Part shown: in pieces, positions 1,945 to 20,000 of the stretch
How positions within the stretch are numbered: position 1 is the first letter of the stretch
How the letters are laid out: every line of letters starts with the position of its first letter
Assembly (NCBI GenBank): GCA_027604505.1
Contig: JADIIX010000112.1
Coordinates: forward strand, 51,679 to 71,678
DNA length: 20,000 nt
Source: Gonapodya sp. JEL0774
Lineage: Eukaryota
Direction: 5' to 3'
The notes under the pieces: model-generated
Told to the model about the DNA's origin: nothing
What the model saw: the letters and a program-made list of their open reading frames with translations, nothing else
Database searches by the model: none
Position numbers and translations under genes: made by a program

Positions 1945-2118
1945 CTTCGTAGAGGTTCATGGTGCCGTTGCAAAATGTTTTATCAACCACCTGAATATAC
2001 AGTTACTCGGAATTATATTTTATTGGGGTGTTTCCGGGGGTTGAGTTACATAGATCAGGTTTCACAATGAGCACGTATAAGTTTCCACGAGCTATACTCA
2101 CGCATTGATTCGGTAATA

Positions 2119-4972
2119 ATGGCAGCAGCAGCTTCTCCCGAGCCACCTTCGCCACCATCAACACCTCTTAGTCTGACTGCACGCCTTCGTGAACGCATTT
2201 CCTCCCTTCCCCGTGCTATCGCTTCGCGACCTCTTCGACTAGCATTTTTTGGACTCTTCGTCTATGTAAACGCCCAATCTTACAAAAGACAAAAAGAATT
2301 TCTTACTGTTTCCGATTCAACTGTTCTAAGGTGGCGGCTCGATGTGAGTTTTGGAACAAGATGCTTGTTGCGACAAGGGGAACGAACTGGACAGTACCTT
2401 CGCATTCTCATCCAATGTATCCAATTTCACCCGATTGTCTGACTTGCATTTCGGGATCTCGCGCTGACAGAAAACTTCCATTACGGAAGCTCCCCCGGAG
2501 GCTGGCTTTTCGCTTGGTAGCTTGCTTTCACCGGGTCCAGGAGGGCCGTTGGCGAGCCTTACCCAGAGAGGGGTAACTCTCTACGATTTTATTAAGACTC
2601 TGAAAGATGCAGAGAACGATGAGCGTGTCGTGGGATTAGTACTGGATCTGGCGAGTGCCGGACCAATGGCTGTTCAAGAACGACTGGGGTTGGCCCAAGT
2701 GCAAGAAGTGAAGGAAGCTTTGAACAGCTTTCGAAAAACGAAAATTGAGCAATTCAAGGATACTCCTGAGAAGTGGCAAAAGATGGTTGCTGTCACGGAT
2801 TCCTTCGGTGAGTGACGCGGTGGCGCTGAACAGGCTAGCCCCCTAGCATTGGTGCCATGCTAGAAACTCCGGTGCCTATGCTCCAAGATTCACAGGTTGC
2901 GTATTACCTCGCGTCATCGTTTGACTCCATCTCACTTGAGCCGGTCGGCGTGTTACCCTTGGTCGGTGTAAGCGTGAGTTGTTGAGTGAAAAAGTTTAAA
3001 CGAGAATGACACATCCAGTGACCTCAATGAGGGTTGCATGAAACATCGCCAGACTGTACAACCTTTCGTCAAAAATTTATTAGACAGATTGCAATTGTAC
3101 CCGCGAGTCTTCACCAAGGAACAGTACAAGGGGGTATACTCGTTCCTCCAAGGAACTGGGTTTTCCGACCCTATCCGTGAGAATACAACTTCCTTCGTGA
3201 CATCTTTGAATGATCAGCTCGTGGAGGGCATCGCTCGTGGACGTTGGAGATGGCTTCATAATGCAGAGGACTCACTCAATCGTATCGAACGAGGGGAGTT
3301 TTTGGGAGAATCTGGCGAACCTGAGGACTACGCAGATGTTGTTGTCACACCGCCAGCCTCAGCATCTTATGATGAGGCCACCGAAAAGGAACGTCGTGCG
3401 GCCATCAGCACCGTGGAACGAGTTCTGGACTTGGGAGGTCTTTCGGCCCGAGAAGCGCTATCGTTGGGGCTTGTTGATATCCTGAACTACCGAAGGCTCA
3501 TGGTCGAACGTTTCTCGAAAGAGAAGGCGACTCAAGGAATGTTTGGTGAGAAGAAAGTGAAGGAGAACAAAAGTATGTCTATACCTCGGTGAGTTTATTG
3601 CTCGTGGTTTCCTTCGATGAGCTCGTTCTTGTTTGAAACACATCGGAATGCACTAAGTTACAAAGCTGCCCGAGCGTTTGAAAAACGTACTGGAGTCGCC
3701 CGATACGCGAGCACTGCAGGATATCCTTTGCCCGCAGACGCTACACCATCAATAAATCTGTCGGTTTGGAAAACCGGGGAGAAGCCCAAACCTCCCAACA
3801 AAGTTACTGTCGGCATGGTATATATCACTGGTATGATCAGGAAAGGAGATGGCCACGACGGATCGTCGAACCTTGTTCAAGCACTCGTCGATGCCGGAAA
3901 AGACTCTGATATTGAGGCACTAGTAATAAGGATTGGTGCGCTGAATTTCTGTTTGGCATCTTGAAAAGTCTTGGTTTTGACAGTTGATGATGAACCCCAA
4001 CCAGATTCTGGAGGAGGTGATGCAGGAGCATCCGATACGATTTGGGAAGCAGTAAAAGCCGTTTCTAGTTCCTCGGGAAAACCTATTGTTGCAAGTTTCG
4101 GTAATACGTGTGCTTCGGGTGGTACGTCCAGGACCTGTTGTTGCACAGCAAACTGTTACGCCTCTTGATATCGCCCCTCTGTCAGGTTATTACATCGCGG
4201 CAGCCTGCAACCGAATTTTTGCAAGCCCGGGAACTGTGACAGGTAGCATTGGCGTTGCGGCAATGAAGCCCTACGTTTCTGGAGAATTTTTGGACAAAAT
4301 TGGTGTGACGATTGACAGCATATTTACTTCAGAAGGAGCGAAGAACGGCTCCATCTTCCACGATATCGAGGGTCGAACTCTCGATCGCATGTTGAAGAGG
4401 ATGGAGGAATCGTATGTTATTTTCAAAAAGAGGGTGGCAGAAGGTCGTGGCTGGAGTTTGGATAAGGTGGGGTCCATTGCGGGCGGTAGAGTTTACACTG
4501 GCCTTCAAGCGTACAAGCTTGGGCTCGTTGATGAATTGGGTGGGACTCACGACGCTGTCCGGTACGCGGCGACAAGAGCAATGGAGAAGCGACTGGACAC
4601 TTTACCGGAGGAGCTGAAAGCTATTGTGGAAAAGGTCGGCAAAGTAGGACCACCGGAAGAAGTTGACCTAAAAATATTTCCTGCACCCAAATCGGTGTTT
4701 GCAAGGGGTGAGTTAACAGTGAATGTTCTGTGAGCGGACGAGTTTTCGTTAACGTGCCGACGGGTACAGCTGGTGACTTTGAAGACATCGATAACACTCG
4801 TTGGCTGCGGATGGCCAGCAATTTTGTCTCGGGTGTGGCGATGCAAGTTGCTCGAACAGTGTGGTATTCCAGCGGATCCCACCTTGAATGGGAGCGCAGT
4901 TTGGTCGATTTCCCAGGGCGGATGGAGACACGTTTCGAAGATAGAACTTTAACGACTGGCCTTCGGACATAA
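2119..4972 (+). CDS. sppA: S49 family signal peptide peptidase (SppA/protease IV, two-domain type). Exons 2119-2343, 2471-2807, 2888-2973, 3053-3588, 3658-3935, 4005-4121, 4186-4707, 4770-4972
   Basis: Motifs LKDAENDERVVGLVLDL, LGLAQVQEVKEALNSFR, AYYLASSFDSI, YKG (candidate catalytic Lys), ALVIRI|DSGGG, KPIVASFGNTCASG|GYYIAAAC (catalytic Ser), TGSIGV and IAGGRVYTGLQAYKLGLVDELGG. All seven GT-AG introns are phase-consistent. There is a hydrophobic segment near the N-terminus (LAFFGLFVYV). Confidence 0.92.
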
Positions 4973-5256
4973 TATATTCGTGGAAATTTTGGTTTGGCCA
5001 CTTCCAGATCATCTGGTGCCTCTTCGTGGAGAGCTTCGAAGGAGTCGTATTGTCCTATGAGCCATCAAAGACGATCCACTCCGCAACCAGCTGAAGAAAG
5101 AAGAAATCGAAATCCGAGTTCAACGAGAGTGTGAGGTTAATGCCCAACTCACGCTGGTGTCAGGTGATACCCAGACGAACCCCTATTCATTGTCCACACC
5201 ATGCATACAAACTTTTCAGAACATCTGAGCGGTCACTTTTACGGATTGTTGCCGAC

Positions 5257-6665: not shown

Positions 6666-8502
6666 TCACCCATGAGGGGACACTACCAGAGACCTGAATG
6701 GCTGGATTCCCTTTGCTTCGTTGGAAGGTGCCACGATGGCAACATTTGGACTTGTTGGTGGTCCACGATCAAAGGGAATGTCGAAGACCCCCGACTTCCC
6801 AAAGGATAGTACTTCCATGGGGGGTCGGCTAAATGTATTTTGATGTCGTAGGTATGTTTTTGAGTGGTCTGAGGTCGGGGGGAGGGGAGGGACAGGATTT
6901 CGTGTTTGTTCAGGCGGGGAGCTGGAAGTGGGCGTACAGGATCCAGTTGTGGTACTGCTAGTTTCAGCTTCTCCGTTGCCAGGTACGCGCCATGTGAATC
7001 GCAGTTTCAAGTCAGAGAGGGCTGTAACAGTGGGGATAAGACCTGCGTTTCGTGTTGCTCGCATGGATGTTGGGTACGATTGCGTGCCGTTTGATAAAGA
7101 GTCGTATGTCGAAAAAGAGTGTTGAGTTGCGGTGACTTCCTGTGGAGTAGGGGGTGGTGGGAACATTGCCGGTGGATTGGAAGGGTATGGAGGAAGGGAG
7201 TTGGAGCGGTTCTGGAAATGATGCAAGATACTAGGTTGGCGGCCCTATTGATCGGAATCAGAAATACGTTTGCAGTGAAACTCATCTACAAACAAGAAAC
7301 AGCAATGGATACGTACGGGAACAGGAGGAGATGCGGGTCGATCTTCTGTTGGAGCGGGAAACAAAAATTTCAATCATAGCGATCGCCATCAAGACGCAGA
7401 TGTATTTTACTCCTCACCTCGGTAACGTTTCACACCACCCAATCTGCCCTTGTGTGGGGATGTTCGCCGCTTCCCATTTCCTATTGCCAGCACCACATGG
7501 GAAACAATACGAGTTTCCGGATACATGGAAACGGCTTAAGACACCCGTGAAAAGTTGCAGTCACAACTCACGTCGCTTCCCGGCCTCGGTGCTCCCTTCG
7601 GAGCCTGAGTCAGACGACCATTCGACATATGGAGAGGTCGGCCGGCCAACGTCACTGTTTGTAAAGCGTGATGCAGCATCTCTGCACATATCATTAAAGT
7701 GTGAAAGAGAATGTGATGTGAACTTCGCGCGTCAGAAACGGCAAAACCTGCACCCACCTGGCAGCCTGTCTCGTGCCTCGAGGGCCGAGTCCCAAGCACT
7801 TCTCGAGATGTTGGGCGAACTTCTGTGCGCCGTGGTGTCTACCGCATTCGGGGCAGATGATCGGGTCAAGGCTGTCCACACGTTGGTGGAACGACCGGTT
7901 GTGCGCTAATGGGATTTGACAAGGGGAGGTCGTTTGGTAAGGAGCATTCCTTCACAGAAAATGGCTCCACCAAGACTTTGAGGAACTTGCATCCGATCGA
8001 CTCACATATATCTCGGCAACTTCGAGGGTTACGTTGATAAAATGAAAGGTGCATATCTTTTAGGTAACAACACCAACAGCGCTTTCGAGGAACAAGCTCA
8101 TCAAATCAAGGACAATCCAGCGACATGGCGATTCCAAGTTGTTCAAAAACGACTTTGCAAGCTTTGTGCGTTGGTATTTTCCTGGTCTTCGATGATGGCG
8201 AGATGGGTGGGAAGATTCAGGTGGGGATCCTCCAAACTCACTTTCTCCCACAGACCTGGCAAGGCCTAGTGATGAGCCTGGCGTCCCGAGTCGTTGCCAG
8301 GGCCAATTCGAAGACGCATTCTTCGAGCAAATCGTCGAAAAGCTCCGAATCCTTCCAGAACCAAAGGGTGTTCGGGTGAGGATCGCATTCCCCAGAGCCA
8401 AGGAATTGAGGTTGGAAACGACTCCCGCGTGAGGGGAACTGCGAGAAAAATTGCACACAGGATAAACATCGAACATACCAGAGACTGGCCAGTCTCCGTC
8501 AT
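6666..8502 (-). CDS. SGF11: SAGA deubiquitination module subunit Sgf11/ATXN7L3-like with a long P/S/T-rich tail. Exons 8502-8479, 8351-8242, 8019-8006, 7905-7758, 7681-7572, 7480-7418, 7345-7317, 7244-6666
   Basis: Sgf11 zinc finger ICPECGRHHGAQKFAQHLEKCLGLGPR and an N-terminal helix ELFDDLLEECVFELAL, resembling the Sus1-binding region. The introns are phase-consistent. The exact start and last exon are less certain because a GTGAGT overlaps the stop at 6666. Confidence 0.85.
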
Positions 8503-12579: not shown

Positions 12580-13836
12580 CTAATTCACTGCTCGTAGTTC
12601 CGTGCGGCTAATGAGCTTGATAATCTCATTGTGACCAAGGCGCTTGGCACGATATACTGCACTCATCTTGTATTGAGATGGCGCTCTGGGATCTGCTCCC
12701 AGCTCCAGCAGTTGCTTAACCACATCAGTCTTACCCGAGGCAACAGCATTCCAAAGTACCTTGTTTTCATGAAATTGAACATTGGGGCTCCGACGAAGCA
12801 AAAGAGAGACTAAATCCCAACGTCCACTGCCCTCAGCATATCTCAGCGGCGATCCGTTTTGGGCATTGACGTCTGCTCCACGATCCAGCAGCAGACACAT
12901 CATTTCGACTAGCCCTAACTGAGCTGCCACACATATTGCTTCATTGTCCCGCGTACCCACATCTGCACCCTTTGATAGCAATAGACGGACTGTGTCCAAA
13001 TGGTCACGAACTGTTGCAACCAACAATGGATAGTCCTCAAAGACGTGAATGTCGGCTCCATGACTCAACAGCTCCAACACTACTTCTGATCGTCCAAACT
13101 CTGCTGCTTCACATAACGCACTACACCCCTCCACGTTGTATTCCCTTGGCTCCAAATTGGCCCCTTTTGAGAGAAGCAGTTGCACGATCTCTACGTTTCC
13201 GCAGCGTGAGGCCATCCGCAGGGCTCCATCATGTTGAAAATGAATGTCTGCACCGCGGTCAAGTAGCATCTTTACAGTTTCAAGATGCCCGGTGGAACAC
13301 GCCTCGATAAGAGCGGTATAAACCTCACGGTTATCCCTGCTGGAAATGTCCACGTTCGCACCCAGGTCCAGCAGATACCGCACAACAGCTGGATTTCCAG
13401 CTTTGATCGCAGCTCTTAGCGGGGTGATTGTATAGATTTGATGCTTCTTATTTCCTCTATTGAGTTGACCTGTCCAGTCCAAATTGAAGTCAGGGCGACC
13501 GTTCGACCGGTCGTATATGGCCTTGACGACCAGAGAATCGCCGGTCGAGGAATTCAGACACTCCCAAACAACCGCTTCCATCAACGGTTTGTAGCGGGCG
13601 ATGGCTCGGGCGGCGATGTTGTTTGGCGTGGCGAAAATGGAAGCCAGATGTCGGTCTAGTGCGCCAGTCGGTAGTCCGAGTCGGAAGTCGAGGTAAACAC
13701 CAATGAGGAGGATAACTTCGGCGGGAAGGAGGGATAAAGTTGATGATGGGTGTTGGGAAAGTGGGAGGAGGGAACGGTTGGGCGGGTCGGCACGGGAGCA
13801 CAGGGAATACGAGCGAGAGGACGAGACGCCAGTCAT
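12580..13836 (-). CDS. Intronless ankyrin-repeat protein (~9 repeats) with an N-terminal F-box-like motif, ~418 aa from ATG 13836
   Basis: Repeats such as TPLRAAIKAGNPAVVRYLLDLGANVD and TALIEACSTGHLETVKMLLDRGADIH. LSLLPAEVILLIGVYL resembles an F-box start. The start is assigned to the ATG at 13836; the ORF stays open further upstream. Confidence 0.88.
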   Translation of the reverse strand: MTGVSSSRSYSLCSRADPPNRSLLPLSQHPSSTLSLLPAEVILLIGVYLDFRLGLPTGALDRHLASIFATPNNIAARAIARYKPLMEAVVWECLNSSTGDSLVVKAIYDRSNGRPDFNLDWTGQLNRGNKKHQIYTITPLRAAIKAGNPAVVRYLLDLGANVDISSRDNREVYTALIEACSTGHLETVKMLLDRGADIHFQHDGALRMASRCGNVEIVQLLLSKGANLEPREYNVEGCSALCEAAEFGRSEVVLELLSHGADIHVFEDYPLLVATVRDHLDTVRLLLSKGADVGTRDNEAICVAAQLGLVEMMCLLLDRGADVNAQNGSPLRYAEGSGRWDLVSLLLRRSPNVQFHENKVLWNAVASGKTDVVKQLLELGADPRAPSQYKMSAVYRAKRLGHNEIIKLISRTELRAVN

Positions 13837-14468
13837 GGGAACTTTGGAAAGAAGGTGGCGGAGGATGGCGCGGGGGGAAAAGCGATGATGTGGGATTGTG
13901 TGGAATGGGCGACAAAAGTCCGAGATGGTTGTGCTGAAGCCCGCTGTGTACTGTGAAGAACTTGAGAACCAACACAATGAAACTCTTTCCGTAAACCTCT
14001 TTCCGACGAATTGATATATCGGTGCGCGCGAACAATTGTTCATCTGAAACAGCTTTGACAATGAGGAATGTGTGACAGACAGAGCGCATTGGGGTTCAGT
14101 TTGCCTGCCACAGACAATGATGTCTCCCTGTAGTAACAATCATGCTGCCATGTAGAATTCGATGATTCTGAGTAAAACATAGAATGTCACTCGATGCGAT
14201 CCCGCGGTCCATGACATCATTAAAAGGAGATTTGCCTCCACCCGGGACTGACGAGAAACGGCGATGGCACCTGGGATTCCAGCCATCTCGACAGGAAGTG
14301 CGGGATTCAGAGTGACACACAGTACCATGGGTGCAACGAGAGCAACAATTGCCGCTCTTCCGTGACGAAAGACGATACTTACCGATGAATGGAAACCATA
14401 ATACCTCCTTGCCACAGATAAATAAATAATTAAACTAATTGGAGACAATGATCTTTTTTGGAGTGAGC

Positions 14469-14612: not shown

Positions 14613-17600
14613 ATGGCGCTGGGTGACAATGGCACGACACTGAGTGATTTTCATCCGCTGATTTTCGTCAAGCTATCCCAGACGAGACTGAAACGGAAGC
14701 CGCCCATGCTTACCGAGGCAGCTCGACTTGATGGAGAAGGCTCGCCGAACAACACGATTTATTTCGATCCAAGGAAGAAGGGAAATCTTTGGGGCTTCGA
14801 ATTTCTCTTGTCGTGTGCGGAAAGGAATTGCTGTTGCTATCTAGCGAACGAGGTGGGTTCTGCGTCAAACGGTGTATTCTGGAAAGCCACTTTGACATTT
14901 CACTTTGTAATCAGTTCATTGTCAAGCTGCACGTGTTCTCTGTGAGCAAGAGCGATGGAAAGCTGAAAGACGTCAAAGCTCCTTGTTCCTATCTATTCAA
15001 AGGGACTCACAAGCTAGATGAATCAAACGCCTGTATTTCTTTCAATCTGGAGCCCCAACGCAAGCAGTCTGTCAGCGACAATCTATCAAAGTATGCGGCA
15101 TTTGAGATCCTAACTCCAGAACGGCGTTGGGTCAGCGCTCTTTTTGGTTATCGTTGTTGGGACAACAATCAGACACAACAAATGTCGGCACCGGGGAACG
15201 AGACGAACGAGATTTCTCCCACTCTTGAACTACGTCCTTTACTCACGAGTGAGCAGAAGGATGTACTTAAAGACGCGGACCTATTGCGTGAAATCGGATT
15301 GTTGCAAGACTGGATGGACCTGGAGCAGTCAGGCCCCAAAAGTACACTGATGTGAGTCGTTTTCTCTTTTCCGACGAAGCTCCATCGCGGCTTTGACTAG
15401 TGAGTCGTGATTTTGATCTCGTCGTATGTTCCCCTTTTCATGCACGGAAGTAGCAGTGAGTGCGCTCTACCATCATCGTCTTCCAAATCGAATAAATTGA
15501 ATTGCAATTGTTCTGCTTTCAGACACGGCCCCATTGATGGAAGCCCCAGTGCCCTCGACGAATCATTTTCTTCCCTCGCATCAAGCTCCAGTTGTAACCA
15601 CGAATGTAGTGTCTTCGGGGATCCAATTTGCATTCTCACCAACGAACGTCACGCCGCCACCGATGCAAGCTCCTGCTGCATCCACAAATGTGATATCTCC
15701 ATCTGAGCAAACCCTATTCTCACCCACTCCACTAACGAAACGCATGTCTCGATCAATCCATCCTCCAATGTATCCTCCAATGCAACCCCCATTTCAACTC
15801 AGGGAGTCTGTTTCGCCATCTGCCGAGGCTTGTGATGGGATGGAACTGTCGATTCCGTCATCTTATAACCAAAATGCTCCAATGGAAGTCGGCAGTAAGT
15901 GTCAGAAGTAACTGTTGATCTCCGTTAGCATGGGATCTGTCCCCAAGCCAACAACGCACCAATCATTTGAAGCGTCACCAATGAAAGAGCCAGGGCTGCC
16001 GCATCTGAACCCCAACTTCACGACACTTCGTACACACCCAGTAGTGGTTGTTGAGTGGCCCGACTTTCAAAGTAGGTTAATGGCTTTCACGTAGTTGCCC
16101 GCACATTTTAACATTACACCGGGGCCGTTAAGGTGGTTACGTTAATAAAGTTTTACTCACAAAAATTGATGGAACGGCAGTCGATATAGATGTTCGGCAA
16201 AGCGAACAATATCCTGGTTTTTGGGAAGCTACATTTCCTATGGAGAACCAGGGGTGTGTGGTACAAGTACTTGCTGTCAAATTGATGGGTGTTCGAGTTA
16301 TCGCTTCAAGTGGAAGTGTCCCTTTTACCTACCGCGACGTGGATGGTGAGTGCGAGTACATGATACCATGAGAACAACAAGTGACATGCTTCTCGTCTAG
16401 TTTCACAATTGATGGCTCTCACTCGGCAACAAAAGAGCATTATTGAACAGTATGAACGCCAACTTAATATGTTGCTCACAAATTACGGTGGCAGAAATTT
16501 CTCACCGGGTGAGTGAGCACCGGATGGTCATTTTGCAATACGAATGCCAACATGCGATTTGAGAAGGCATCAGACAATCTCTACCGTACCCACACCTGTT
16601 GGCTTACTGCCGTCGCGATCCTCAGTGGAAAATCTCATATGGACCATCACCGTTGACCCGAGGAACAAGAGTTTTGGTTTCACTGAAAGATCTTGAGATC
16701 GTTAGTTGGGATGAATTTTGGTACGTGAACAAGGTGCTCTGTGGCATTTAGCTTTGGTCTTCAATTGGAGTTCCATACGCAGGCGGTCTTTCACTCTCAG
16801 TCGTGAACCAAATTTTGGCTTCTGGGTGCCTGTCTTTTACGTTCACAAAGGCGTGGTATCAAGAACTTTTGTCCGGCACGACACAGTGTTTGAAACTGAG
16901 GAGTGCATTCTGCTCGCCAAAATCTGGATGATTCTAGCTGCTCGATATTTGAAAAGCTTGGTGGCGACGATCATCACAGAGGAGGGCAAGGCTTTACTTA
17001 ACCACCAATTGAATGTCGTTCAAGAATTTGATCCCTCACAACCCTTGTTCTTGAACACCATGCTGGGCGACAACACTGATGCCGCGAAATCACTTATTCC
17101 AGATACAAATGCACGATCAACGGACATTGTAATAGACTTCCAGAACATCAGTGGCCTCGCCCGTGTTCACATCGGACACAACAACTTGAACAGCATGCTG
17201 GGCAACACTGCTAATGCCGCGAAATCAACGTTTCCCGACTTAAATGCACGAACGGGGGACATAGCAATAGGCAACGAGGACATCGGCGGCTCTGCCCGTG
17301 TTCACATCGGAGATCACATCGAACACAATATTTACTACAACCACCCGACGTAAGTTTCACAATTCGAATCAACAAGGAAACACTTCGTTGACTCTCGCTC
17401 ATTTGATGTCAGACCTACGATCCCAAAAGTGTCTCCAGGAGTTCATTCGGCTCGTTCCTCGTCACCACAGTATTACATTCCATTTCGCCGGAACAAGCAG
17501 TTCGTTGGCCGCGCCAAAACCATCGATGAACTACATCTCAAGTTGTTTCAAGAAAACTGTGGACGCGTTGCTCTTGTGGGACTCGGCGGCGTCGGCAAGA

Positions 17601-20000
17601 CACAGGTTGCACTCGAGTTTGCCCATCGAGTGAAGGACACAGAACGGGACTGCTCGGTGTTCTGGATATCTGCCCTGAGCTGGGAGAGCTTTGAGCTAGC
17701 GTACAACAACATAGCGGAAATATTGGGTATCGGACGCGATGCGGGGAAACAGAAGGATATTCTGAAAACAGTCCACGATTATCTGAGCCAGCGAAAGGCT
17801 GGTCGATGTCTCCTGATCGTGGATAACGCCGACGATGATCGTATTCTGCGTGGCATTGAACCTTTCATTCCCGAGAGTGACGATAGCCGGATCTTGTTCA
17901 CAACTCGCACACGATCCGTGGCCGTCACAGCAGCACAAACGCACATTGTGAGGCTCGACCAGATGGATGAAAAGGAGGCACGCACTTTTTTTCAAACTGC
18001 TCTGATCTGCGGAGAACTTGCTTCAAACGACCCATCTGTTACCGGTGAGCTTTTGAAATATCTCACGTACCTGCCATTGGCGATCAACCAGGCCGCTGCG
18101 TACTTGAATACAAACGAGCCTACTACGTGCAAGCAATACATGGATATCCTCAAGCGCACTGAAAAGGATGGCATGGGGCTCCTGAGTGTCAGTTCCAACG
18201 TTGGAGATGAACAAAGATCCGACATTGCGGTTGCAACGACTTGGGCGGTATCTTTTAACCGGATCCGTGAGCTCAATTCAACTGCTGCAAATCTCCTGCT
18301 CTTCATTGCTTGCATCGAGTCCAAGGAAATTCCGGAATCCATCTTGCCGCGTGCGGAATCTATTACAGATTTTCAAACTGCGATTGGCATCTTGCTTGGG
18401 TACAATTTTCTATCTGTGTCTCGTCAACAAGAAAACAGAACCAGCGAAGTGGTATACACAATGCACCGTCGTGTCCATCTGTCGGCCAAACTTTGGCTCA
18501 GCAAGGAGTCGCGAATGATGGAAGCGGTTAAGAATGCGTGTCAACACATCTCAAACATTTTCCCAACGACTGAATGGAAGAATCGTGAGATTTGGAGGAA
18601 GTACTTACCACACACTGTGAATATTCTCGGGATCAGGGAGGGGAAGGAGCTTGTTGAGAGATATGACCTATGCCACAAGCTGGCAAAGACTATGATGGTG
18701 GATGGAAAATTTGAAGATGCTGTACCATATCTTGAAGAATGTGCTGGTAGGAAGCAGAAACTGGATACTTTGCAACATGATCACCTGAACCGCTCGATGT
18801 CAGAACTGTGGTTCAATCATATCGGCAGACCATTAAGAAACTTCACTCAAACACTTTGGAGCACACCTAACCAGTCTACTGAACGACAGTGGACTGCATC
18901 TGACCTTGATCTGCGGCAGGAGCTCGCACTTGCTTATCTATACAGTGACCAATTTGACAAGGCGGAAGAGTTGTTACTTTTAGTTATCACAGAGAAGAAG
19001 CGCACAATGAAAGATGGGAATCCCTCGCTCCTGCAGTCCCAACACGAACTCGCACGTGCCTGCCGTCTGCAGGGGAAGAAGGAAGAGGCCTTGAACCTGC
19101 TGGCACAGGTCCTTGCCGACAGCAAGAATACGCTTGAGAGTGGCCATGTTGTGCGGCAAGCAATAAAGCAAGATAGGCAGAACTGGATGATTGGTGAGAC
19201 TTAGTACATGCTTCGTTTTTTGTTTGGACTCGTGTGACACAGCCTTCCCATTTATTGCCAGAGGACGTCTTAGCCACATCAGATGGAAGCATGGGCGCAG
19301 TGGTGTGGACTGACGTCCTGAAAACAAACGGCGATGTTGTCGATCTGACAGGTGAGAGGCAACAATCCAGAGAAATGTTTGACTTTGGCAATGAAGGCGC
19401 TGCTCACCTTGTTTGACTTTAACATGCCGTGCATTTACAAGGTAGATCCATTGGGAACGATGGGGCGTCAGTTGTTGCTAATGCACTACGAGAAAACAAG
19501 ATGTGGAGATTCCTCAATCTTAGAGGTGAGTTATTCTCTACAGCAGCCGTCCTCGGAGAATGGTACGCTGTCCCCACACGAATGTGTCCAGTTATGGACT
19601 ATGCGCTCCATCTGCTTCTTGCCCTGCCACACGCTCCCACATGTCATGCTCAAATGCATGCTCTCTCTTCCCAGTCAACTCTATCACTGAGAGGGGCGCC
19701 GAGGCGCTCACTGAGGGATTGAAATCAAACAGCACTCTGGTGCGGCTTGATCTAGGCAGTGAGTTCAGGTTCACCGTGTGTCTGTGTTCTCTCCACCTCA
19801 CCTCATCCCACATGCTCAAACCTCCTGTCCCCACGCAATGACACAGGTAACCTCATCGGCAACACAGGTGCCAGGGCTCTCGCCAAAGCTTTGAGGATCA
19901 ACGGAACATTGTCGTCTCTCAAACTCATAGGTGAGAACCGATTCAGTGTCACAGCTTCTCTGTCTTTCCTCCCTCCCATTGTCCCACACCCTCTACATTC
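14613..20000 (+). CDS. Large multidomain NLR/STAND-type protein, 3'-truncated: unknown N-terminal domain, IPT/TIG-like domain, 2x HET-s-like motif, NB-ARC, TPR, LRR. Proposed exons 14613-14852, 14915-15351, 15451-15455 (micro), 15523-15894, 15973-16071, 16133-16345, 16401-16508, 16567-16720, 16783-17349, 17413-19193, 19262-19351, 19442-19525, 19675-19758, 19847-19930, ...
   Basis: All junctions are GT-AG and phase-consistent, with no in-frame stop in the joined model. The 5' part depends on a micro-exon, so the single-gene model is less certain than the individual domains. Confidence 0.65.
17051..17320 (+). repeat. Coding direct repeat, 135 nt (45 aa) x2, each ending in an ARVHIG amyloid-like motif
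   Basis: LNTMLGDNTDAAKSLIPDTNARSTDIVIDFQNISGLARVHIGHNN versus LNSMLGNTANAAKSTFPDLNARTGDIAIGNEDIGGSARVHIGDHI. GCCCGTGTTCACATCGGA is identical at 17159 and 17294. Confidence 0.92.
17413..19193 (+). CDS. NB-ARC NTPase plus TPR region (one large exon of the NLR gene; unspliced it would stop at 19204)
   Basis: YYIPFRRNKQFVGR, Walker A GLGGVGKT (17579-17602), VFWISA, Walker B LLIVDNAD, sensor ILFTTR, YLPLAINQAAAYL, MHRRV (MHD-equivalent), then TPR-like helices QELALAYLYSDQFDKAEELLLLVI and SQHELARACRLQGKKEEALNLLAQVL. Confidence 0.95.
19442..19930 (+). CDS. Ribonuclease-inhibitor-class (NLRC3-like) 28-aa leucine-rich repeats, one per 84-nt exon
   Basis: Exons 19442-19525 (RSIGNDGASVVANALRENKMWRFLNLR), 19675-19758 (NSITERGAEALTEGLKSNSTLVRLDLG) and 19847-19930 (NLIGNTGARALAKALRINGTLSSLKLI) are each exactly 84 nt, phase 1, with GTGAG donors. 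Confidence 0.93.

Follow-up and report, generated by a model that had tools for sequence, protein, structure and literature searches.

Whether plants and animals evolved NBS-LRR receptors by convergence is a textbook question. Plant LRRs belong to a different, shorter class than those considered here, and the vertebrate pattern, like the one described below, is one repeat per 84-nt exon. Fungal NLRs have been reported without such repeats: surveys and reviews published from 2014 to 2025 describe LRRs as absent, and the canonical fungal sensors are WD40, ANK, TPR or HEAT repeats without an LRR (Dyrka 2014, PMC4986451). This literature agrees with an earlier note on the DNA analyzed here, a 20,000-nt stretch from Gonapodya sp. 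JEL0774 (hereafter, the window), which took fungal NLRs to lack LRRs and read one gene as an exception. The Gonapodya proteins described below depart from the canonical pattern in that their TPRs are predicted to be followed by LRR_6-type repeats. We consider it quite probable that the window locus belongs to a Gonapodya family in which an NB-ARC-TPR exon is predicted to be joined by splicing to RI-type LRRs encoded one exon per repeat, and that its product is likely an intracellular non-self receptor. A kind of sensor that immune receptors of plants and animals use, and that was reported missing in fungi, is thereby predicted in an early-branching aquatic fungus. A literature search found no publication on a Gonapodya NB-ARC-TPR-LRR family.

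The family resembles the NB-ARC-TPR NLRs of Pezizomycotina (PMC4986451; PMC12258605, Bonometti 2025) in having the same NB-ARC subtype, with 33-50% identity. Its 42-residue TPR type matches the Podospora TPR-like structures 4y6w and 4y6c, and its N-terminal HET-s-like motif or PNP_UDP domain recalls the amyloid-motif and PNP_UDP classes of Pezizomycotina. Unlike those NLRs, the Gonapodya proteins have few TPRs and then an RI-type LRR array, and the host belongs to the Monoblepharidomycetes (NCBI label) rather than to the Dikarya. The animal NLRs (NLRC3, NOD2, NLRP) share the 28-residue RI-type repeats but have NACHT, death-fold N-termini and no TPR between the switch and the LRRs. The plant NB-LRRs ZAR1, NRC4 and MLA13 likewise combine an NB-ARC switch of matching fold with C-terminal LRRs and a diversified concave face, but sequence identity to them is only 15-19%, and the plant proteins have CC or TIR N-termini and no intervening TPR. 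The brown-algal NB-ARC-TPR and LRR-ROCO receptors, as summarized in PMC13449251, are expanded, fast-evolving candidate immune families with repeat-per-exon sensors, but in that account NB-ARC occurs together with TPR, LRR is combined with a different NTPase, and the two combinations are found in separate proteins.

The window gene is GenBank HDU93_000702 (P0001), an automated and partial model. Its features are given in Table 1, and the coordinates in the earlier note were all borne out by the sequence and our scripts. The gene runs off the end of the window and likely continues past it, because a donor at 19931 follows exon 19847-19930. Its neighbors are OGT, SppA and Sgf11. The NB-ARC domain (Pfam E 5e-17, 17516-18166) contains a Walker A motif at 17579-17602 together with Walker B, sensor 1, GLPL- and MHD-equivalent motifs, and TPR_10 and TPR_12 were also matched. 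NB-ARC lies above the Pfam cut-off and NACHT below it, and the fold matches NRC4, Apaf-1, ZAR1 and CED-4. At the MHD-equivalent motif the window copy has Arg, as opposed to Leu in the 10 paralogues. The 11 family proteins have no Pfam match to a CC, RPW8 or TIR N-terminus. With its NB-ARC motifs and C-terminal superstructure-forming repeats, the protein has the domain make-up of a STAND/NB-ARC NLR-like receptor.

Table 1. Positions in the window of the features of the NLR gene.
Feature	Position	Strand	Source
Upstream exon of NLR gene	16851..17349	+	GenBank model P0001 mapped
HET-s-like (HRAM-like) putative amyloid signalling motif, copy 1	17129..17185	+	motif scan
HET-s-like putative amyloid signalling motif, copy 2	17264..17320	+	motif scan
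Intron, phase 2, GTAAG...CAG	17350..17412	+	sequence, mapped model
Single large exon: NB-ARC, helical domains, then 42-residue-type TPRs	17413..19193	+	
Predicted phase-1 intron, TPR to LRR, 68 nt	19194..19261	+	same in HDU93_000702
LRR cap / degenerate first repeat exon, 90 nt: helix + first beta-strand	19262..19351	+	
RI-type LRR exon, 84 nt; Arg at Asn-ladder position	19442..19525	+	
RI-type LRR exon, 84 nt; last exon of partial GenBank model	19675..19758	+	
RI-type LRR exon, 84 nt, intact; absent from GenBank model	19847..19930	+	

The NB-ARC-TPR frame extends from 17413 to 19204, and its read-through stop, TAG at 19202-19204, lies inside the predicted intron. The earlier note had placed a GTGAGA donor at 19194, ahead of this stop, and a pyrimidine-rich intron end with CAG at 19261, from which a phase-1 junction would run into exon 19262-19351 and the 84-nt LRR exons. 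All of this is found in the sequence: the donor is in phase 1 and its hexamer recurs at the next donor, 19352; the intron is 68 nt long; the 90-nt exon is open and in frame; and the three 84-nt exons are all phase 1-1 with GTGAG donors. The automated model HDU93_000702 contains the same 19193/19262 splice. The 1.8-kb NB-ARC-TPR exon holds five GTRAG sequences, four of them in phase 1, so the donor at 19194, taken by itself, is little more than chance would give. An alternative acceptor at 19273 keeps the frame, and another at 19242, whose last 8 bases are those of the LRR3/4 acceptor, shifts it and leads to an early stop. A sequencing-error frameshift in the first LRR exon was rejected because the existing frame of that exon is matched by three paralogues. 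It is the paralogue family that provides strong evidence for the predicted splice; a lone donor is weak evidence.

This family has 11 members, including the window gene, in one assembly; they are 31-85% identical and form one clade. Seven of the 11 run from TPR into RI-type LRRs, two partial models (P0239 and P0382) terminate in the LRR cap, one (P0386) halts at the junction and one (P0244) is without LRRs. Pfam LRR_6 is above cut-off in four (P0002, P0240, P0383 and P0384), and a custom LRR profile, built from non-Gonapodya repeats, also matches P0001 (28.6 bits), P0249 (9.8) and P0243 (6.6). The nine LRR- or cap-bearing genes sit on contigs of seven different sizes. The family numbers at least 9-10 genes, a point absent from the earlier note. 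A single fragmented assembly, annotated automatically, is the source of every gene model, so the models share their dependence on one gene finder. Cap exon 19262-19351 is conserved in P0002, P0239 and P0384, and three subfamilies, 31-50% identical to one another, have in common a short, in-frame linker between a conserved Trp and the cap. AlphaFold2 models the cap exon as a helix (976-986) and a strand (990-992), and in both P0001 and full-length P0383 the modelled chain passes from TPR helices through a short loop to the cap helix and then to beta/alpha LRRs. At the level of gene models, LRRs joined in frame to NB-ARC by a predicted splice and kept in paralogues constitute an NBS-LRR architecture. 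The joined reading in the earlier note is supported by the recurrence of this architecture in diverged paralogues of the same assembly, and NB-ARC-TPR-LRR receptors are probably genuine.

If splicing were optional, transcripts that retain the intron would encode a short NB-ARC-TPR receptor that stops at 19204, and spliced ones the long LRR form. The unspliced frame does stop three codons past the donor, directly after the last TPR helix, and the P0386 model has an equivalent ending, Trp-x-x-Gly-Glu, which in the protein looks like the read-through signature of a G/GTGAG donor at the equivalent site. However, any intron gives a stop soon past its donor, and two further models, P0384 and P0249, likewise finish by running into an LRR intron, which looks like gene-finder truncation. 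We regard optional splicing as unlikely. We find it quite unlikely that two tightly linked genes, a receptor and a partner, were duplicated together and that their fusion is a gene-finder artefact. Such an arrangement would fit an LRR array that opens with its own cap repeat, the in-frame ATG at 19291 and the probable mis-joins elsewhere in the same GenBank models, such as the fragment of a multicopper oxidase that terminates P0002, but the gap between the stop and the first LRR exon is only 57 nt, and the short, in-frame linker is shared by the three subfamilies. A separate LRR start at ATG 19291 was rejected, this Met being absent or displaced in paralogues; no conserved Met precedes the LRRs among the paralogues compared.

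The custom profile matches all three 84-nt LRR exons at 16-19 bits. A Pfam search of the joined window model, which the earlier note had proposed as a check, gave no LRR at E<=1, whereas RI-type LRR proteins in the PDB do match the model (best E 2e-12), NOD2 (5e-7) and NLRP14 among them. The best matches to the LRR region are LRR-rich proteins, including NLRC3 proteins and proteins from Mortierellaceae, and neither NB-ARC nor NACHT was found in the 20 of 120 matches that were rescanned. The ladder Asn of the first regular repeat is replaced by Lys or Arg in 6 of the 7 LRR bearers, a change shared across subfamilies, whereas Asn dominates at this position in 118 other LRR proteins. Across two independent paralogue pairs, concave x positions are identical at 15 of 32 sites compared with 43 of 55 for other variable positions (Fisher p 0.004); by this comparison of sequences, the concave LRR residues change fastest.

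Trees of the NB-ARC core, from which TPR and LRR columns were excluded, place all 11 members on one side of one branch (support 99 with FastTree, 342 rows; support 89 with IQ-TREE quick, 57 rows), and LRR bearers occur in both deep arms of the 11-member clade. A non-ascomycete outgroup for this tree was searched for and none was found. Among the matches listed, LRRs are absent from the 331 other top relatives, no NB-ARC-TPR-LRR protein comes from another species, G. prolifera included, and the ESM Atlas returned NB-ARC-TPR clusters and no LRR family for P0240. Likewise, no LRR was found in the 80 metagenome loci kept of 194.

The fungal source of the DNA is taken from the NCBI label, Gonapodya sp. 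JEL0774, which all 11 genes carry. Were the contigs instead to come from an admixed non-fungal eukaryote, the architecture would be real and the rule that fungi lack NB-LRRs would be untouched. The fact that no G. prolifera relative is among the matches listed is compatible with such an admixture, which we nevertheless judge very unlikely: the contigs that carry this label range from 5 to 72 kb, one of them very early-numbered; the named NB-ARC relatives among the matches listed are filamentous ascomycetes, save one record labelled Quercus suber; and the GC3 of the NB-ARC exon (0.53) agrees with that of neighboring genes (0.51-0.55).

For a fungal NB-ARC-TPR-LRR family, the origin may have been a single fusion, preceding the expansion of the family, of an ascomycete-type NB-ARC-TPR gene with an LRR exon array. 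A fuller account, to which we give somewhat less than an even chance, is an independent fungal origin of NBS-LRR receptors in which an ascomycete-type NB-ARC-TPR gene was acquired, perhaps horizontally and in the form of a single exon free of introns, and grafted once onto the host's own exon-per-repeat RI-type LRR array, after which the family expanded while its LRR binding face diversified, and was in part wired to HET-s-type amyloid signalling. If this is true, the family would be a living TPR-to-LRR intermediate on the route proposed for plant NB-LRRs. A fungal family that combines NB-ARC, TPR and LRR in one chain would in any case offer a natural experiment in which LRR addition to a TPR-type STAND protein is recent and tractable and LRR-less relatives are available for comparison. 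It would also extend NLRs, and perhaps amyloid signalling, to a zoosporic lineage in which earlier work found few or none.

The upstream HET-s-like motif, which the earlier note did not mention, lies in a 135-nt tandem duplication inside exon 16851-17349, with ATGs at 17060 and 17195. The copies (17050-17176 and 17185-17311) are 76% identical over 127 nt by blastn. The two closest paralogues, P0002 and P0239, begin at the equivalent Met and have the putative motif in single copy. The HRAM rule describes a 21-residue motif near the N-terminus with hydrophobic positions 3, 6, 8 and 14 and Gly17 (PMC5485727), and the window motif fits 4 of these 5 positions, counted by eye. Pfam HET-S (PF17108) gives a weak match, below cut-off, to the first copy in the ORF (E 0.096), and the amyloid-like region has no meaningful PDB match to HET-s. 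A scan of the six frames of the window found no effector gene (HeLo etc.) with this motif at its end. From the STAND/NLR mechanism, we infer that the TPR and LRR arm would keep NB-ARC ADP-bound and off, and that ligand binding, presumably at the concave LRR face, would lead to exchange of ADP for ATP and ring assembly. The ring would then cluster the N-terminal HET-s-like motifs into an amyloid seed, by which an effector encoded elsewhere could be switched on. One paralogue carries a PNP_UDP enzyme domain in cis, which in that protein might act instead of an effector encoded elsewhere.

The earlier note had proposed that a fungal NB-ARC-TPR frame is spliced, in frame, onto RI-type LRR exons. 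Re-reading the sequence by script, we found all of its coordinates to be correct, and the predicted phase-1 junction does join the TPRs to the LRRs in frame. The large exon encodes an NB-ARC domain (Pfam E 5e-17) followed by TPR repeats, and its unspliced frame soon ends at a stop. Downstream of the predicted intron lie one 90-nt exon and then three 84-nt exons, all of them phase 1-1, and TGAC, 24 nt 5' of the acceptor, could be a branch site. Because the large exon contains five GTRAG sequences, four of them in phase 1, the GTGAGA donor is little proof on its own; among the AGs 3' of the donor, use of 19261 or 19273 would preserve the reading frame, whereas use of 19242 would shift it. The GenBank model HDU93_000702 (KAJ3337695.1, partial; Gonapodya sp. 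JEL0774, Monoblepharidomycetes) was 100% identical to the large exon in a homologue search, and when mapped onto the window it uses the identical splice and takes in two of the three 84-nt exons. This is an automated gene model; funannotate annotation is described for low-coverage zoosporic assemblies as a group in an excerpt of PMC9457484.

Features of the window; (-) marks the reverse strand
Feature	Position	Remarks
O-GlcNAc transferase, C-terminal part	1-1944	Glyco_transf_41; last exon with long unmatched extension
SppA / protease IV-like gene	2071-5000	intron-containing; two Peptidase_S49 pieces
Sgf11 zinc-finger exon	7697-7951 (-)	
Ankyrin-repeat gene	12583-14139 (-)	single exon; N-terminal stretch F-box-like by eye
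Five extra upstream exons of GenBank model	15182-16510	no Pfam/PDB match; low pLDDT; may be part of a separate gene
135-nt tandem duplication, 5' end of NLR-like gene	17050-17311	doubles start Met and HET-s-like motif
Large NB-ARC-TPR exon	17413-19193	Pfam NB-ARC, TPR_10/12
TPR-to-LRR intron, predicted, 68 nt	19194-19261	phase-1 GTGAGA donor, CAG acceptor
Stop of unspliced NB-ARC-TPR frame	19202-19204	

Three homologue searches recovered at least 11 NB-ARC proteins from the JEL0774 assembly; identity between three subfamilies among them is 31-50%. Four paralogues (P0002, P0240, P0383 and P0384) pass the Pfam LRR_6 cut-off, and a custom LRR profile built from 65 non-Gonapodya repeats matches these four, the window gene P0001 (28.6 bits) and, weakly, P0249 (9.8 bits) and P0243 (6.6 bits). 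P0239 and P0382 are partial models that terminate within the degenerate first, or cap, repeat; P0386 ends in Trp-x-x-Gly-Glu plus a few residues, like the window frame reading through its donor, and no LRR was found in the P0244 model. Thus seven of 11 family models carry LRRs, two the cap only and two neither. Among the matches listed, neither the 331 other relatives nor the 80 metagenome loci yielded a single sequence that reached the LRR-profile reporting threshold; these are the best rows of far longer lists, with 692, 28,329, 1,957 and 194 entries. P0002, P0239 and P0384 (HDU93_004228-004231) form a tandem cluster of three members on one 21.5-kb contig; the last part of the P0002 model is a piece of multicopper oxidase that was probably joined to it in error. 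Adjacent LRRs at residues 680-765 of P0383 are near-identical and in this resemble the sensors of het-type fungal NLRs, whose repeats are highly conserved.

In two trees built from just the NB-ARC core, all 11 paralogues fall on one side of one branch (support 99 and 89), with LRR bearers in both deep arms of the clade, about 1.5 changes per site apart. A post-TPR profile made from two subfamilies scores 28-33 bits against three of the four members of the third, the exception being the truncated P0239, and at most 7.7 bits against shuffles. A separate gene start at ATG 19291 is rejected, since no Met ahead of the LRRs is conserved in the paralogues. In the AlphaFold2 models of P0001 and of P0383 at full length, a short loop connects the final TPR helix to a cap helix, which is followed by regular beta/alpha repeats; such models show predicted foldability rather than expression. 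At the Asn-ladder position of the first regular repeat, taken as the first pattern match and not necessarily the true first repeat, six of seven LRR bearers have Lys/Arg, whereas Asn is the prevailing residue in a set of 118 unrelated LRR proteins; Lys/Arg may be a general N-terminal cap trait. From the gene models and the family, we consider the predicted TPR-LRR splice likely to be real.

An intron-free NB-ARC-TPR exon beside intron-rich LRRs suggests, at the level of gene structure, that two unrelated genes were fused, perhaps after horizontal transfer. Among the matches listed, named non-Gonapodya relatives are filamentous ascomycetes except for one record labelled Quercus suber, and the TPRs correspond to the 42-residue type from Podospora; the LRR region matches NLRC3, Mortierellaceae and Capsaspora proteins. 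Codon GC3 resembles that of neighbouring genes. Among the Mortierellaceae, large LRR_6 proteins (P0121, P0122, P0127-P0129, P0136, P0140, P0141 and others) have no annotation over several hundred N-terminal residues, and P0123, a 1946-residue metagenome protein, has many TPRs followed by LRR_6 repeats; Pfam detects no NB domain in any of these.

The claim that fungal NLRs are described as lacking LRRs agrees with the accessible portions of sources from 2014 to 2025. Dyrka 2014 (PMC4986451) reports there no LRR motifs and no chytrid matches, Wojciechowski 2022 (PMC9815663) and Daskalov 2023 (PMC10197012) are in line with this absence, and a 2025 review (PMC12881547) restates that NBS-LRR is seemingly absent from fungi. 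Bonometti 2025 (PMC12258605) screened 122 proteomes, including G. prolifera, using LRR profiles; the available text and supplements report no LRR class among NLRs, and the per-species data may contain an LRR-bearing case. We found no publication on the Gonapodya NB-ARC-TPR-LRR family in the non-subscription literature, including the accessible parts of PMC11291939, PMC13449251 and PMC13618815. The family, whose proteins are already in GenBank as hypothetical proteins, is probably an NLR with a hybrid TPR and RI-LRR sensor in an early-diverging fungus.

The NB-ARC contains Walker A, Walker B, sensor 1, GLPL-type and MHD-type motifs, and its fold matches NRC4, Apaf-1, ZAR1 and CED-4. In two independent paralogue pairs, exposed concave-strand LRR positions are identical at 15 of 32 sites vs 43 of 55 other variable positions (Fisher p 0.004) and 57 of 64 core positions, the pattern expected, from sequence comparison, of a binding surface under diversification. 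We infer that the TPR and LRR repeats would keep the NB-ARC switch off, that a ligand on the LRR face would lead to nucleotide exchange and oligomerisation, and that the N-terminal module would then signal. Taken jointly, it is likely that the NB-ARC-TPR-LRR architecture is real and works as a receptor.

A HET-s-like motif lies on a separate upstream exon, single in P0002 and P0239 and double in the window gene because of the 135-nt duplication; the two-repeat arrangement is usual for effectors, not receptors. The motif is weak, fitting four of five HRAM positions (as described in an excerpt of PMC5485727) with a Pfam match below cut-off, and no partner effector was found for it within the 20-kb window. 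At the P0243 N-terminus, PNP_UDP stands in its place.
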